Numbered from the stretch's first letter, positions 46,497-61,674 are shown. The stretch: DNA of 64,000 bases from Candidatus Xenobia bacterium (GCA_045114665.1 JBGUKW010000318.1:1868-65867); one strand, 5' to 3'. The notes: a model not told the origin generated them from the sequence alone. Made by a program: numbers and translations.

Positions 46497-46964
46497 TTAA
46501 TTTTTCTCTTCACTCTGTATAAATTTTTTGACAGAAGGCATTAAATCATTTATAAAAAGTTCCATTTTTCCCCTCCGTTCATCATTTTCAAGTATCTGTT
46601 TTAAAATACTTGATTTCATTGCAGAAAATCCTTTGTTTTTTGCCATTTTTGAACCAAATTCTTTTTTTAAAGCACTTTCAACTATTCTATCTGTAGCTTC
46701 TTCAAGAAAATTTTCTGAATTTTCATCTAAATTTGACAAATTTTTTATAGCACTATTTCTAAATTCCTGCATTTTTTCATTTTCTGCCTGTTTTTGAGCT
46801 TGCTCACTTATTGCAGATGTATCACCACTTTGTATTCCAAAGAAGTGACTTTGATGTTTTTCTACAGGAGAATTTGATTCATTTTTAGCTTTTTTTTGGG
46901 ATATATATAACTCTTCAGTTGTAAACATCATCCCAAATTGATTAGGATTTATAGAATTATTCAT
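46497..46964 (-). CDS. Hypothetical protein (divergent from the flgB operon)
   Basis: 155 aa, no recognised motif. Confidence 0.35.
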   Translation of the reverse strand: MNNSINPNQFGMMFTTEELYISQKKAKNESNSPVEKHQSHFFGIQSGDTSAISEQAQKQAENEKMQEFRNSAIKNLSNLDENSENFLEEATDRIVESALKKEFGSKMAKNKGFSAMKSSILKQILENDERRGKMELFINDLMPSVKKFIQSEEKN

Positions 46965-47277
46965 TTTAGCTATATCCTATATTATATTAATAAATAATTT
47001 GCGAAACGCTTTTTAATATAATCACTTTAATTTTCTTTTTAGTAAATACTTTTCCTGTTTTTTTTTTATTTGAAACTATTATTACAAATATGTACATTTT
47101 TTTTAAATGTTAAGAAAATGTCTAAAATCTTTAAGAGTCTGTAATATCACTCTTTTTAACATACTGTTAATATTTCGTTAACGAATTTGTAAACTGTTTT
47201 AGTTATTATTTAAACAAGTAAAAGTCTTTTTATAGATATTTTAAGAAATTCTCCAAGAAGTGAGGGGGGCATATTTA

Positions 47278-54969: not shown

Positions 54970-55866
54970 ATGAATATAACAAGTTATGATCCTTTAAAGG
55001 ATAGAGATTACGAAAAATCTTCATCATCTTCTTCAGCAAAAGGTGGTGCTATTACTGATGGCGATGTCGCTACATTTGCAAATATGTTAGAACGCAAGAC
55101 AAATGGCGACAATGATGTAAAAGAAAAGACAAAAGAGGCTATTTATTCAGATAAAGAAGCTAAAAAAGAGAGTGAAAAGAATGCAAAAACAGCTTCTAAT
55201 TTGCCAAATACTGCAAAGATGTCTGCCTCTAAACAGCTTTTATATAACATGCCTTATATGAACAAAGCAACACTTTCACTTGCTCAGAAAAGTGCAATGG
55301 GATTAAATGCTGATGGTACTTCAAAGGCTATGGTTATGTATGGAAATAATCAGAACATGACTGCAGGCAAGACTGGTGAAGCTGTCAATCTTCAAGCTCA
55401 GACAAAGGCTGCAGAAGCAAATGGAATTGCAAAAACTGATGAAGCAAAAGCTGGCAAAGAATCAAAAGCAAAATCTCCAGCACTTGGTGTCAATGCAAAT
55501 ATTTCTGCTCAAAATACAGAACAGACAGAAAAGCCAATTACTAAAGAAGTAAGCAAAGCCGAAAAGACAGAAGCTGAACGCAATGTCAAGAGAGAAGAAG
55601 TCATCAAACAGATCATCAACCATGTTGAATTGAAGAATTTTGCAGGTAAGTCAGAACTCACAATTAAGATGAATCCTGAATTCCTCGGTGCAATGAAGAT
55701 GAGACTTATATTTGAAGGCGATAAGGTCTCCGCAGAATTTAATACAACTTCAAAAGCTGTTCGTGAAGCAATCGCTGATTCTTCAGATGAACTTTCACAG
55801 GCATTTAATAAAAAGGGTATTAAAGTTGGTCATATCGGTGTAAAACTCGTAGATAAAGTTTCATAG
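54970..55866 (+). CDS. fliK: Flagellar hook-length control protein FliK-like
   Basis: C-terminal Flg_hook-like domain (ELTIKMNPEFLGAMKMRLIFEGDKVSAEF). Low-complexity N-terminus. Confidence 0.65.
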   Translation: MNITSYDPLKDRDYEKSSSSSSAKGGAITDGDVATFANMLERKTNGDNDVKEKTKEAIYSDKEAKKESEKNAKTASNLPNTAKMSASKQLLYNMPYMNKATLSLAQKSAMGLNADGTSKAMVMYGNNQNMTAGKTGEAVNLQAQTKAAEANGIAKTDEAKAGKESKAKSPALGVNANISAQNTEQTEKPITKEVSKAEKTEAERNVKREEVIKQIINHVELKNFAGKSELTIKMNPEFLGAMKMRLIFEGDKVSAEFNTTSKAVREAIADSSDELSQAFNKKGIKVGHIGVKLVDKVS

Positions 55867-55901
55867 AAAAATTTGAAATAAAAAGTAGAACTATATTGTG
55901 A

Positions 55902-55935
55902 AAGCGGTAAGGAAATTTTCTTTACCGCTTTTTTA
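55902..55935 (+). terminator. Rho-independent terminator ending the flagellar operon
   Basis: AAGCGGTAA-GGAAATTTTCT-TTACCGCTTTTTT. Confidence 0.75.
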
Positions 55936-56055
55936 ATAGAATTTTTGAAAACATAGTGTACAGAAAATGAATATGGCTGGTTAGTGAAGTAATGGATTAT
56001 GTGGCAAGAGAGACGCAGAGTAGAAAATTTGTAGATTGTTTGAAGGAATTGAAAA

Positions 56056-56364
56056 TTGACATACTCCCCATAAATTTAGGGGATTCTGGCATATTAACGA
56101 ACCTTGCCTCTATTTTAAATTAGAGGTCTTACGAGTTCTATCTACAATGGTTGATGCCCCAACCATATTCTTTATTTATTATTATGTTCCTTGTTTTAAT
56201 TTAAGTTTAGAGAACAGACGATTACCTTCTCTATCTATGTTTATTCCTGCGTTTATATCACGATCATGATGAACACCACAAACAGGACAAGTCCATTCTC
56301 GTATCCGTATATGCCTGTATACTGTCATTTTATCATTGCGAGGCTTTAGCCGTGGCAATCTCAA
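56056..56364 (-). mobile_element. IS200/IS605-family right-end remnant, copy 2: 60-codon TnpB C-terminal fragment (ORF 56182..56364: ...[22 protein letters not shown]...) plus RE hairpins
   Basis: About 90% identical to 36427..36678 and extends a further ~65 bp into tnpB. Hairpins CCCCATAAATTTAGGGG and CCTCTATTTTAAATTAGAGG. Same minus-strand orientation as copy 1. Confidence 0.65.
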
Positions 56365-56448
56365 GCACTTTTTTATTAACTAACACAACGAGTTAATTAT
56401 GAAAATATTTTATATTATTAAACCCCCAAAAAATACAAAAAAAAATCA

Positions 56449-56477
56449 TTGCATAAAATCTTTAAAAGTAGTATAAT
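56449..56477 (+). promoter_or_regulatory. Consensus sigma70-type promoter of the oadGAB operon (TTGCAT-17-TATAAT), member of a duplicated ~52-nt promoter module
   Basis: -35 TTGCAT at 56449..56454, 17-nt spacer, -10 TATAAT at 56472..56477, upstream A-tract. Module matches 59903..59956 with only 3 mismatches. Confidence 0.6.
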
Positions 56478-56528
56478 TATAAAATACAGCAAAAAATACC
56501 CCAACAATAAAGGGAAAGAGGACAAAAT

Positions 56529-56756
56529 ATGGTAGAAGGTCTTTATGTTACTGGGATAGGCATGGGGGTTGTATTTGCTTTTCTATGTATTCTTGTACTT
56601 GCTATAACATTGACAGATATGCTTGTAGCTAAATATGAAAAAGCAAATCCACCAGCAGAAATTGCAAACAAACCAAAAGCTAAAAAGTCTATACCAGAAG
56701 AAGAAGTTATAGCCGTTGCCATTGCTTCGGCAATTAAACATGGAGAGTTAGTATAA
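56529..56756 (+). CDS. oadG: Oxaloacetate decarboxylase gamma subunit
   Basis: 75 aa. Single N-terminal TM helix. Sits immediately upstream of oadA. Confidence 0.7.
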   Translation: MVEGLYVTGIGMGVVFAFLCILVLAITLTDMLVAKYEKANPPAEIANKPKAKKSIPEEEVIAVAIASAIKHGELV

Positions 56757-56758
56757 AT

Positions 56759-58570
56759 ATGGGTAAGAAAAAAATTAAAGTAATGGATACGTCTTTCAGA
56801 GACGGATTTCAGTCAGTCTATGGAGCGAGAGTTTTCACTAAAGATTTTCTTCCCGCTCTTAAAAGTGCAATAGAAGCAGGATTAAGACATTTTGAAGTAG
56901 GTGGTGGAGCAAGATTTCAAGCCCCTATATTCTACTGTAATGAAAATGCTTTTGACATGATGGACACAATAAGAAAAACAGCAGGTCCAGAAATTGAGCT
57001 TCAGACACTCGCAAGAGGTGTAAATGTCGTAGGTCTTGAATCACAGCCTAAAGACATCATCGATCTTCATGCTAAAATGTTCAAAAAACATGGCATGACA
57101 ACGATTAGAAATTTTGATGCATTAAATGATGTCAATAATTTAGATTATTCAGGAAGATGTATTAAAAAACATGGATTAAAACATGAAGTAACTGTAACAA
57201 TGATGGAATTACCTATTGGTTGTGAAGGAGCTCATGATGTTCCATTTTATGAAAAAGTTTTAAGAAGTATACTTGATGCTGGAATTCCATTTGATTCTCT
57301 ATGTTTTAAAGATGCATCTGGTACATCAAGACCAAGAAAAGTTTTTGAGACAGTAAAAATGGCAAGAGAATTAATCGGTTCTGACAAAAGCATAAGATTC
57401 CATTCTCATGAAACAGCTGGAACAGGCTTAGCATGTTATTTATCTGCTCTCGAAGGTGGAGCTGACGCAATAGATTTATCAATGAAACCTGTTTCAGGTG
57501 GAACAGCACAGCCTGACATCGTATCAATGTGGCATGCTCTCAAAGGTACAGAATACGATCTCGGAATCGACATCAAAAAAATCATAGAAACTGAAGAAAT
57601 TTTTAAAGAGTGTATGAAGGACTATTTCCTGCCTCCTGAGGCTACAACAGTAAATCCTATGATCATTCAATCCCCTCTCCCAGGTGGTGCCTTAACAGCA
57701 AATACCCAAATGATGAGAGACAACGGAACTATGAACAGATTCCCAGAAGTTGTAACAGCAATGAATGAAGTTGTATCAAAAGGCGGTTTTGGAACTTCTG
57801 TAACACCTGTTTCACAATTCTATTTCCAACAGGCATATTCAAATGTGATGTTTGGACCTTGGAAAAAGATAACAGACGGATATGGCAAAATGGTTCTTGG
57901 ATATTTTGGAAAGACACCTTGTGAGCCTGATCCTGAAGTAGTAAGAATGGCTTCAGAACAGTTAAAACTTGAACCAACAAAAGAAAAAGTTGTTAACATC
58001 AATGACAGAGACAAAACAAAAGGCATTGAATATGCAAAAAAAGTTTTAAAAGAAGCTGGTCTTGAAGAGACAGATGAAAACATATTTATAGCTGCCTCTT
58101 GTAAAGAAAAAGGTATCGAATTCCTAAAAGGAAATGGAAAAATTGGTGTCAGAAAGAACGAACCTGAAAAGAAAACTACATCATTGACAAAAACCAAAAA
58201 ATCAGATACATATACAGTAACTGTAAATGGCAAGAGTTATGTAGTTAAACTCGATTCACAATGTACAAAGGCAACTGTAAATAATTCTACTTATGACATA
58301 GATGTAAAAGAAGGTTCTACATCTCTTGTCAAAAAATCTTCTTCATCAAATGAAGGCACAGAGATAAAAGCTCCACTACCAGGAAAAATTACAAAAGTTC
58401 TTGTAAAAATTGGAGATAAGATAGAAAAAGAAGATACAGTAGCTATCATTGAAGCAATGAAAATGGAAACAGAGATAAAAAGTCCAGTCGCTGGTACTAT
58501 TTCTTCTATAGATGTTGAATTTGGAACAGATGTACTTACAGATCAAGCAATTATGACTGTAGAAGAATAG
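56759..58570 (+). CDS. oadA: Oxaloacetate decarboxylase alpha subunit (carboxyltransferase plus biotin carboxyl-carrier domain)
   Basis: 603 aa. TIM-barrel carboxyltransferase (FRDGFQS, HxH metal site). C-terminal biotinyl domain EAMKMETEI. Confidence 0.9.
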
Positions 58571-59827: not shown

Positions 59828-59914
59828 GTATATTTTTTCTCATATGAACTGAACCCAAAATTACATTTTTTGTTTGCCTTTGCATAAAAATACATAAAAA
59901 ATATAAAAAAATCA

Positions 59915-59943
59915 TTGCATAAAATTTTTAAAAGTAGTATAAT
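59915..59943 (+). promoter_or_regulatory. Consensus sigma70-type promoter of pckA; second copy of the duplicated promoter module
   Basis: TTGCAT at 59915..59920, 17-nt spacer, TATAAT at 59938..59943. Confidence 0.6.
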
Positions 59944-60027
59944 AATAAAATATAGCGAACATAGTGAAAAATTAAGGGCTATTTTGATAGTCCTATTTTT
60001 ATAAAATACAAGGTGAAAGGAATAAAC

Positions 60028-61674
60028 ATGAGTACAATAGAGAATTTCAGAACAAATGAAGAATTCAAAGCTATGACTTCTGCAGCAAGAGCAACTATAG
60101 TAACTCCATTTTTTGGAAACAATGTAGAATCTGTAAAGACAATAGCAGAAGCATACAAACTTGCACTTCGTAGCCCTGGTACAATAGAATTGACAGGAAT
60201 GCCAGTCTATGAACCTGAAAAAATTGGACTTCCAAAAGGTGCAAATCAACTTCTTTTCAACGATGGCAATGTTGTCGGTCGTTGTGCAGCAGCAAGAAGA
60301 ATCGTAGGAGACACAAACTGTGATCTCAAAAAAATTCTCCCAGTAGTTAGAGAAGCTGTATATAATACAAGATATAAATTAATGTACAGAACAGAAGCCG
60401 TTATTGGTCTTGAAAATGATTTCATGATCAAAGCACACCTTTTGATTCCACAAGGCTTTGAAAATATAATGTACTCTTGGCTCTTGAACTTCCAATATAT
60501 AAATGAAGAATATGCAAAAATGTATGCAAATTCAAGAGAAATCCCAGAGGGTGACATCTATGTATTCTCAGACCCAGATTGGACACACCCAGACTTCCCA
60601 CTCGGTTTGACATTCTTCGATCCAGAACACAACTGTGCAGCAATCCTCGGAATGAGATATTTCGGAGAATTCAAAAAAGGAACTCTCACACTTGCTTGGG
60701 GTTCTGCAGCAAGAAATGGATATGCTTCATGCCATGGTGGAATGAAGCGTTACAACCTCGAAGGTGGAAAATCATTCCAAGCAGCAGTATTTGGTCTTTC
60801 AGGTTCAGGAAAATCAACAATTACACACGCAAAACACAACAACAAATATGACATCACTGTTCTTCATGATGACGCATTTATCATCAATGTTGAAAAGAAA
60901 TATTCAATAGCTCTTGAACCTTCATATTTTGATAAAACAGCTGACTATCCAATGGGTTGCGATGATAACAAATATATCCTCACACAACAGAACAATGGCG
61001 CAATCACAGCTGAAGACGGAAAAGTCTATTCAATAACAGAAGACATCAGAAATGGAAATGGAAGAGCTGTAAAATCAAAACTATGGTCTCCAAACAGAGT
61101 TGATAGAGTTGATGAACCAATCAACGCTATATTCTGGCTTATGAAAGACCCAACAATTCCTCCAGTTGTAAAAGTATCAGGTGCAGCACTCGGAAGCACA
61201 ATGGGAGCAACACTTGCAACAAAGAGAACATCTGCAGAAAGACTTGCACCAGGTGTAGATCCAAATGCACTCGTAGTTGAACCTTATGCAAACCCATTCA
61301 GAGTTTATCCTCTAAAAGTTGACTATGAACGCTTCAAAAAATTGATTGAAGACGGAGTTGCTTGCTACATTCTCAACACAGGCGAATTTATGGGCAAGAA
61401 AATCAAAAAAGAGACAACACTTGGAGTTCTCGAATCAATCGTCGAAGGTACTGCAAAATTTGAAAAATGGGGCAATCTTTCTGACATCGAAATCATGAAA
61501 ATCGAAGGATTTGATGCTTCATTTGACAATGCAGAATATGCAGAACAATTCTCAAAACGCATGAGCGATAGAATCGAATTTGTAAAATCAAGAAAGACAG
61601 AAAAAGGCGGAAAGGACGAACTTCCAGAAGAAGCTCTCCAAGCTCTTGAAAATGTCATCAAAGAAATCAAATAA
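60028..61674 (+). CDS. pckA: Phosphoenolpyruvate carboxykinase (ATP)-like
   Basis: Kinase-1a P-loop FGLSGSGKSTIT (canonical FGLSGTGKTTLS) and overall collinearity with ATP-PEPCK. ATG at 60028 with an AGGTGAAAGG SD. Confidence 0.7.
   Translation: MSTIENFRTNEEFKAMTSAARATIVTPFFGNNVESVKTIAEAYKLALRSPGTIELTGMPVYEPEKIGLPKGANQLLFNDGNVVGRCAAARRIVGDTNCDLKKILPVVREAVYNTRYKLMYRTEAVIGLENDFMIKAHLLIPQGFENIMYSWLLNFQYINEEYAKMYANSREIPEGDIYVFSDPDWTHPDFPLGLTFFDPEHNCAAILGMRYFGEFKKGTLTLAWGSAARNGYASCHGGMKRYNLEGGKSFQAAVFGLSGSGKSTITHAKHNNKYDITVLHDDAFIINVEKKYSIALEPSYFDKTADYPMGCDDNKYILTQQNNGAITAEDGKVYSITEDIRNGNGRAVKSKLWSPNRVDRVDEPINAIFWLMKDPTIPPVVKVSGAALGSTMGATLATKRTSAERLAPGVDPNALVVEPYANPFRVYPLKVDYERFKKLIEDGVACYILNTGEFMGKKIKKETTLGVLESIVEGTAKFEKWGNLSDIEIMKIEGFDASFDNAEYAEQFSKRMSDRIEFVKSRKTEKGGKDELPEEALQALENVIKEIK

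Follow-up and report, generated by a model that had tools for sequence, protein, structure and literature searches.

In the window (the whole 64-kb stretch of DNA that was analyzed), a short tnpB-related sequence occurs twice: once (copy 2) between a fliK-like gene (PF02120) and oadG/A/B, in the position correctly given by an earlier note, and once (copy 1) between the stop codon of dnaB and prmA, in the same orientation as both of these genes. The earlier note, made from the sequence alone, described the pair as a MITE-like family. The question raised by this locus is whether the two copies represent a mobile unit of that kind, stand-alone guide-RNA genes or the leftovers of a conventional insertion sequence (IS).

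Extent, identity and orientation of the two copies

A BLAST search of the region against the whole window aligned positions 56055-56299 with 36427-36675 (94.0% over 249 columns, E=4e-108), bearing out the report of a second copy; beyond copy 1, this search gave no match above chance. Copy 2 was assigned to 56056-56309, and BLAST together with the pairwise and full-length alignments placed copy 1, the RE-proximal (right-end-proximal) 246-248 bp of the same element, at 36428-36675, with 94-95.5% identity between the two (95.5% when ungapped columns alone are counted). Both were found on the minus strand in the pairwise alignment that included their flanks, and thus share an orientation, as had been stated. 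Their common terminus reads TTGACATACT on the plus strand (AGTATGTCAA on the minus strand); identity stops abruptly there, and the flanks of the two copies are unrelated on either side, so that the repeat is real and lies outside any larger duplicated block. The earlier description of homology that ends at one RE terminus, followed by diverging flanks, was borne out by the pairwise and full-length alignments alike. The flanks diverge immediately, in line with the accompanying claim of two independent events rather than a segmental duplication. The terminus had been written as ATTGACATACT, in which the additional “A” is a chance match within the flank.

The left boundary of copy 2 had been placed too far out. 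Copy 2 was said to extend ~65 bp further into tnpB than copy 1, but alignment to L004, L006, L007, L009 and L023 (contigs are designated here by L numbers) reduced this figure to 11-13 bp. Homology to full-length tnpB stops at window 56307-56309 (..TACGGATACGAGAATGG..), within which the left junction (minus strand) is ambiguous, and beyond these positions this side of copy 2 shows no likeness to tnpB. Host homology resumes at 56308, and window 56308-57000 is 97.7% identical to the element-free contigs L015, L016 and L026. The 60-codon ORF attributed to tnpB is accordingly composite: its first ~17 codons (56310-56364, minus strand) are read-through into this host flank, which was mistaken for part of the gene. 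On the basis of these alignments, the true remnant is 56056-56309, and not 56056-56364. Within the flank, at 56335-56359, there is an imperfect palindrome, ATTGCGAGGCTTTAGCCGTGGCAAT, located upstream of oadG and conserved in the remnant-free sister contigs, which may be a host regulatory or repeat element.

TnpB similarity and family membership

The tail of the minus-strand ORF at 56182-56364 matched Pfam family PF07282 (Cas12f1-like TNB, formerly OrfB_Zn_ribbon) with 35.1 bits versus a curated cut-off of 26.3 (1.5e-8), and also matched positions 328-359 of 360, the last 32, of the NCBIfam IS200_TnpB profile. In tblastn comparisons and alignments, the tails in the window corresponded to residues 325/336-373 (tblastn, 325-373) of the 373-aa TnpB of L006, such that only 38-41 tnpB codons are left per copy. 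In copy 2, the last ~41 codons occupy 56185-56309 (minus strand), with the stop codon at 56182-56184 and the first codon split by the junction; they include the second CxxC of the zinc ribbon and the RuvC-III HDRD motif, and the tail is not a functional protein.

The corresponding gene in L006 (1360-2481) is intact, and its 3' end is homologous to the remnants. Its product contains the OrfB_IS605 (PF01385) and TNB (PF07282) domains, scores 214 bits on the NCBIfam model of the RNA-guided TnpB subfamily, matches the ISDra2 TnpB structures 8BF8, 8EXA and 8H1J over residues 11-360 (E=2e-49) and belongs to a 90%-identity cluster of 102 members. Up to the RE terminus, copy 2 is 93-94% identical to L006, L009, L023 and L004. 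A word-indexed protein search with the 53-aa tail returned only three short, unrelated TnpB fragments and was uninformative. The exact pattern of the conserved hairpin was more productive in nucleotide collections: five loci were detected among the GTDB species representatives, in two rumen MAGs (RUG13580 and RUG13696), three of them at contig ends, as expected of an assembly-breaking repeat, and two more loci in metagenomes; the same RE pattern had no match in IMG/VR. The element is multi-copy in related genomes, which bears out the multi-copy part of the earlier suggestion. The assignment of the two copies to an IS200/IS605-family right end with a tnpB tail, proposed earlier, is backed by PF07282, IS200_TnpB and the full-length alignments; membership in IS200/IS605, and specifically an IS608-like nature, is well supported by these comparisons and by the element ends and distant relatives described below.

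Anatomy of the parent element and its relatives

The full-length parent element, known from related rumen MAGs and metagenomes, measures 1410 bp, with tnpB at 159-1280 followed by a 130-nt non-coding right end. L006 and L023, in which it occupies different sites, become homologous right after TTAC, as TTAC/CGAAAYGCACCGTAATG-CCCCTAAATTTATTTATGGGG-ATATAAGG (slashes mark boundaries), and both finish at CCCCTAAATTYATTTATGGGG-AGTATGTCAA/. From these independent insertions the element boundaries are fixed, all copies ending in the hairpin followed by AGTATGTCAA/. The RE of all copies reads GAAT-CCCCTAAATT(C/T)ATTTATGGGG-AGTATG-TCAA/. GAAT is the G_R tetranucleotide of IS608. A matching left-end (LE) palindrome and insertion 3' of TTAC are evident in the family, as judged from L006, L023, L031, L035, L036 and the reconstructed site of copy 2.

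In copy 2, the RE terminus (56056-56086, minus strand) consists of GAAT (56083-56086), the imperfect palindrome CCCCTAAATTTATGGGG (56066-56082), AGTATG (56060-56065) and TCAA (56056-56059), and the element ends directly after TCAA. This layout is common to 8 relatives at 30-57% TnpB identity. The entire non-coding right end (56056-56181, minus strand) would constitute the 3' part of a predicted omega/reRNA scaffold, according to an RNAalifold consensus of 7 copies and to single-sequence folding (z = -1.8 for the single sequence). In addition to the terminal, TnpA-type palindrome, two internal hairpins are predicted in copy 2, at 56147-56166 and about 56100-56137 (minus strand). One hairpin of copy 2 had been described as “upgraded” relative to copy 1, but the CCCC/GGGG stem is the family consensus and copy 1, in which the terminal palindrome is degraded to CCAC..GGAG, is the deviating copy; a 4-nt loop deletion in the hairpin of copy 2 is a family polymorphism, found also in L004 and L025. 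On the plus strand, the antisense of hairpin 2 (56147-56166) resembles a terminator (ATGGTTGATGCCCCAACCAT followed by a T-rich run); located after the fliK terminator and before the oad promoter, it could incidentally contribute to insulation.

More distant relatives were collected by a protein-guided scan of IMG/VR, which yielded 15 relatives at 30-60% TnpB identity (L031-L045 are IMG/VR viral contigs with TnpB relatives and the same GAAT-hairpin-AGTATGTCAA right end), and 8 of these 15 keep GAAT-[hairpin]-AG(T/G)..GTCAA at the element end. The stems of the RE hairpin differ among relatives of 30-57% TnpB identity and yet stay complementary, with compensatory changes in 6 of 10 predicted pairs; hairpins 2 and 3 also look conserved, by eye, in the distant relative L037, with apparently compensating changes. 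Several relatives begin with TTAC/C(C)GAA.. at the left end. In L033, the left end is TTAG and the tetranucleotide 5' of the hairpin is altered, a change that would fit guide-directed target choice, by analogy with the IS608 rule (PMC3201880).

No tnpA was found beside the close full-length copies. L034, which is 51% identical in TnpB and has the same RE layout, carries a putative Y1/HUH-type TnpA directly upstream of tnpB (L034:1201-1500), recognized by reading the sequence by eye (..PDHVHLF..), and would thus be an autonomous relative.

Other states of decay were also encountered. The full-length copy at L025:28-1152 is a pseudogene, in which tnpB is split into ORFs of 251 and 121 aa, representing another route of decay. 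At L007:927-1281 (RUG13696 contig 53), a remnant is cut at TnpB residue ~306 by an element with a DDE transposase (PF01609; L007:1222-2226); it is separated by ~57 bp from the orthologue of window 59892-60771, shortly after oadB, and provides, in a sister species, a third case of independent insertion close to the oad operon. A perfect 20-nt RE tip, ATTTATGGGGAGTATGTCAA, is found in inverted orientation at L006:3132-3151 (plus strand), ~650 bp upstream of the full-length tnpB, adjoining AAAATTAGTGCRAATTTG, a motif that occurs also in the dnaB-prmA spacer of L024; this tip may be all that is left of an earlier insertion. Terminal inverted repeats, to which the inverted tip would have pointed, were considered and rejected, since L023 puts the LE at TTAC, 500 bp inside that copy.

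Insertion history of copy 2

Close relatives were traced by their exact OadG and FlgJ-like proteins, and their contigs were then compared with the window. Window 55000-55934, containing fliK and its terminator, corresponds to L026:5762-6692; window 55935-56055 corresponds to L026:7890-8011, in the middle of an intact 110-aa ORF; window 56056-56307, the remnant, has no counterpart in L026; and window 56308-57000, comprising the region upstream of oadG and the oad genes, corresponds to L026:9179-9870. The segment next to the RE (55935-56055, plus strand) is thus a 121-bp fragment of a host ORF, 90% identical to L015:992-1113 (equivalent to L026:7890-8011), and was the original target of insertion. 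This ORF is intact at L015:855-1187 and is cut off on both sides in the window.

The guide-equivalent flank of copy 2, TTTTCAATTCCTTCAA (56040-56055, minus strand), consists of host DNA from the disrupted ORF. In L015 and L026, TTAC directly precedes this flank sequence on the same strand, the uninterrupted sister sequence reading, on the element strand, ..AAATTTAC/TTTTCAATCC.., from which it follows that the RE flank comes after TTAC, the family target; the site reconstructed in L015 is TTAC/TTTTCAATCC. On the opposite side, 1167 bp of sister sequence (L026:8012-9178) are missing from the window with the remnant in their place, and the junction with the tnpB tail displays a 2-nt TA microhomology. 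The sister contigs show that a full-length element inserted on the minus strand, after TTAC within the 110-aa ORF of the fliK-oadG spacer. An illegitimate deletion at the TA microhomology then removed the LE and ~1150 bp of tnpB, along with the neighbouring 1167 bp of host sequence. Copy 2 certainly lost the rest of the element by deletion, and these two steps make up its simplest history.

A second deletion (L026:6693-7889) took the other side of the 110-aa ORF, and the spacer is evidently a variable, deletion-prone islet. In the sister, the fliK-oadG spacer (L026:6693-9178) is larger by ~2.4 kb and contains five small ORFs (62, 150, 41, 110 and 95 aa). Of these, the 95-aa ORF is similar to the C-terminal part of a 220-aa ORF at L006:16-678, and the 110-aa ORF is the only one still represented in the window, by its 121-bp piece.

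Probable insertion history of copy 1

The dnaB-prmA spacer is 32 nt long and element-free in L011-L014 (four aligned; 18 further contigs share the neighbours). Compared with this short allele, as represented by L011, copy 1 has the look of a near-precise insertion, TTAATTAG/remnant..TCAA/T/ATAAAACA.., with a left junction that is ambiguous within 36673-36675. A third allele, in L024, has a spacer of ~190 nt (L024:1531-1720), the 3' part of which (T-ATAAAACACAAYGAG...AAAGAGGACGAAAATATG) is a far better match than the short allele to the window sequence at the RE flank and in the prmA leader, and also accounts for the “extra” T after TCAA. In L024, TTAC does not adjoin the RE flank but occurs 27 nt upstream, followed by TATAA, which is repeated at the flank. 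L024 has TAA at the dnaB stop, and the G of the TAG in the window could come from the element (..CGAG/AATGG). Precise insertion of an already truncated unit at the TTAG of dnaB was also considered, and is disfavoured by the match to the L024 allele.

Copy 1 would accordingly have arisen by insertion into a long, L024-type spacer and subsequent deletion back to the dnaB stop codon, where the deletion probably stopped because further loss would damage an essential gene. The history of copy 1 was probably similar to that of copy 2, although here the exact ancestral site was not recovered.

The guide-equivalent flank of copy 1, TATAAAACACAATGAG (36412-36427, minus strand), is prmA leader DNA. PrmA is called as 300 aa here, versus 281 aa in all close relatives (window 36359-36416, minus strand); the 19 extra codons derive from an in-frame ATG in the leader just past the RE of copy 1 and are an annotation artefact, the real start probably being MDYTTIKIE at 36359. 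The spacer of L024 also contains a 17-bp perfect inverted repeat (GGTTTTGGTATAAGCCA ... TGGCTTATACCAAAACC) with a 37-nt loop. Elsewhere in the window, around 46964-47260, gene orientation and GC skew switch sign, minus-strand genes lying mostly to the left and plus-strand genes to the right; this region may be a replication origin or terminus, or a mere strand switch. If it is the origin, the active strand of copy 1 would be on the lagging-strand template and that of copy 2 would not.

Searches for left ends, protein partners, targets and transcription

No match to the 21-mer of the LE was found in the whole window with up to 3 mismatches. A search of the window for the terminal palindrome, likewise with up to 3 mismatches, matched only the RE of copy 1 itself, the shorter RE palindrome of copy 2 being seen directly in the sequence, and neither copy has a second palindrome. 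By tblastn, the 64-kb window contained no other tnpB-like sequence and no Y1 TnpA, the latter being a weak negative owing to the approximate IS608 TnpA query.

The idea that the RE-proximal flank might act as a guide that matches another genomic or phage sequence gained no support for either copy: TTAC plus the 16-nt flank had no match in IMG/VR, and neither guide had a second match elsewhere in the window with up to 2 mismatches. In the whole window, Rfam at the gathering threshold detected only a tRNA at 30191-30273, and a permissive Rfam scan of 55950-56450 gave only a chance match to a CRISPR-DR family (E=10). No promoter-like site was found upstream of copy 2 on the element strand, and the counts from promoter and terminator scans were not above those of shuffled sequence. 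Copy 1 lies in sense orientation within the dnaB-prmA unit and is probably transcribed, passively, judging from this arrangement. Per-window diversity among four full-length copies was uninformative with respect to the 5' boundary of the omega RNA.

State of decay and competing explanations

Three derived substitutions are common to both copies, and each copy has a further five of its own; on this evidence, they are members of one family sub-lineage that diverged separately. The private changes of copy 1 include two amino-acid replacements in the TnpB tail, a substitution that disrupts hairpin 2, and two that destroy G-C pairs in the terminal palindrome. In all, both copies are most probably non-functional remnants of the 1410-bp, tnpB-only, IS608-like element, i.e., ordinary IS debris. 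The parent element would insert 3' of TTAC and require a Y1 TnpA supplied in trans, and what is left of it in each copy, the last tnpB codons and the RE, would in an intact element comprise the whole region encoding the omega/reRNA scaffold together with the TnpA-binding palindrome. Having no left end, the remnants can presumably no longer transpose. They also presumably lack guide-RNA function, given that there is no TnpB in the window, no evident promoter for copy 2 and no TTAC-adjacent target for either flank. They are gathering neutral substitutions, including the stem-breaking ones in copy 1.

The earlier note saw in the pair a MITE-like, TnpB-less RE module of ~250 bp, mobilized by TnpA in trans or otherwise and inserted independently on two occasions. 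Indeed, copy 1 resembles a near-precise insertion if the short dnaB-prmA allele is taken as the reference, just 11-13 bp separate the left ends of the copies, and three derived substitutions are common to both. Nevertheless, we consider this explanation unlikely. There is no LE palindrome or G_L/TTAC module, and an IS608-type TnpA needs both ends (PMC3201880); the left boundaries are not identical, and TTAC precedes neither of them. In copy 2, 1167 bp of host DNA are missing at the left junction, and the RE junction falls at TTAC in a once-intact ORF, which is what insertion of a full-length element and subsequent deletion would predict. As copy 1 is flanked by sequence of the long, L024 type, any model would need a host deletion of ~190 nt. 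Moreover, left ends elsewhere in the family, such as those of the L007 remnant and the 20-nt tip in L006, are quite different, at odds with the proposal that the TnpB-less RE module is the mobile unit. Still less consistent with the data is an origin by segmental duplication or from part of a non-IS gene, an extremely improbable reading to which the sequence identity itself, and nothing more, lends support: the flanks diverge at once on both ends, each copy is missing at the orthologous site of sister strains, and the unit comprises the RE and, next to it, the 3' end of a genuine TnpB gene.

The positions of the breakpoints deserve separate consideration. Two breakpoints only 11-13 bp apart in an element of 1410 bp would have a chance of ~2% if breakpoints were uniform, and both are located just 5' of the long predicted stem that opens the retained region. 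With two observations, this clustering may reflect chance, a deletion hotspot associated with structure or, very improbably, weak selection for keeping the guide-RNA region. It is quite unlikely that the remnants are other than random debris, whether as selected, stand-alone omega-RNA genes or as products of a structure-directed hotspot; in the hotspot version, the stem could systematically turn IS605 elements into solo guide-RNA modules. The more specific proposal, that the copies are orphan guide-RNA genes kept by selection to serve, in trans, a TnpB or a protein derived from TnpB whose gene lies elsewhere in the genome, is very unlikely. Both remnants exceed the ~150 nt that form the ISDra2 reRNA (PMC8612924), copy 1 shares the orientation of dnaB and prmA and is likely transcribed, the first predicted stem begins just 3' of both breakpoints, and protein-less PATEs can encode omega RNAs that are acted on in trans (Meers et al., bioRxiv 10.1101/2023.03.14.532601). 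Against this, the 64-kb window has no TnpB-like gene, copy 2 has no promoter-like site upstream on its strand, copy 1 has acquired stem-breaking substitutions, and no target of the form TTAC plus guide was detected. The remnants are, furthermore, strain-specific, being absent from L011-L014, L015/L016 and L026 (18-20 further contigs share the neighbours), and breakpoint clustering in two copies only is weak evidence.

Comparison with known systems

IS608 of Helicobacter pylori, which is moved by a Y1 TnpA through a peel-and-paste mechanism, offers the closest parallels described here. Its target is TTAC, and TCAA lies 10 nt 3' of the palindrome foot (PMC3201880); the TTAC of IS608 was also noted by Karvelis et al. 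(PMC8612924). The family shares with IS608 the insertion 3' of TTAC with no target duplication, an RE that ends in TCAA with cleavage 10 nt 3' of the foot of a subterminal imperfect palindrome, GAAT immediately 5' of the RE palindrome, and the placement of tnpB at the RE side. The LE palindrome of the family resembles the RE palindrome and is 17 nt from TTAC, versus 19 in IS608. Unlike IS608, the full-length elements of L006, L023, L009 and L025 carry tnpB only, within 1410 bp, and TnpA was seen only beside the relative with 51% TnpB identity (L034). The copies in the window lack the LE and ~88% of tnpB and would therefore not be substrates of TnpA.

With respect to ISDra2, the full-length relative is a clear homologue of its TnpB, with the RuvC D/E/D motifs read from the sequence. 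Karvelis et al. described a ~150-nt reRNA derived from the 3' end of tnpB, the RE and ~16 nt of flank (PMC8612924), and the remnants likewise cover the 3' end of tnpB and the RE, the source of the guide-RNA scaffold, followed by a would-be guide flank. In contrast to ISDra2, the expected TAM is TTAC rather than TTGAT, there is no Rfam family and no protein partner in the window, and the reRNA here is predicted from sequence. PATEs are protein-less IS200/IS605 derivatives that keep both ends (Meers et al., bioRxiv 10.1101/2023.03.14.532601). The remnants are similar to these in being short, non-coding and IS200/IS605-derived, with a right end of the omega-RNA type. PATEs, however, retain LE and RE palindromes and uniform boundaries, such that TnpA can move them, whereas the remnants have the RE only and their left junctions appear to be ragged products of deletion. 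The remnants resemble a generic truncated IS in having one end intact and the other lost together with host DNA, and in being strain-specific and decaying; nothing essential sets them apart, the only oddity being that the breakpoints fall within 13 bp.

Implications for the element family

The analysis points to an apparently unnamed, IS608-like, tnpB-only IS that circulates in an uncultured rumen bacterium and is distantly related, at 30-57% TnpB identity, to elements on viral contigs of IMG/VR. The two copies illustrate the decay of such elements into right-end stubs, a finding of little biological weight in itself. In practical terms, both the 60-codon ORF and the PrmA call of 300 aa are annotation artefacts of the remnants, and RE-only stubs should not be described as MITEs or active guide-RNA loci unless accompanied by a left end, by a TnpB partner or by evidence from RNA. 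Should the orphan omega-RNA reading be true, copy 1 would be expressed from the dnaB-prmA transcript, and if the clustering of breakpoints held across many genomes, it would bear on the origin of orphan omega RNAs.
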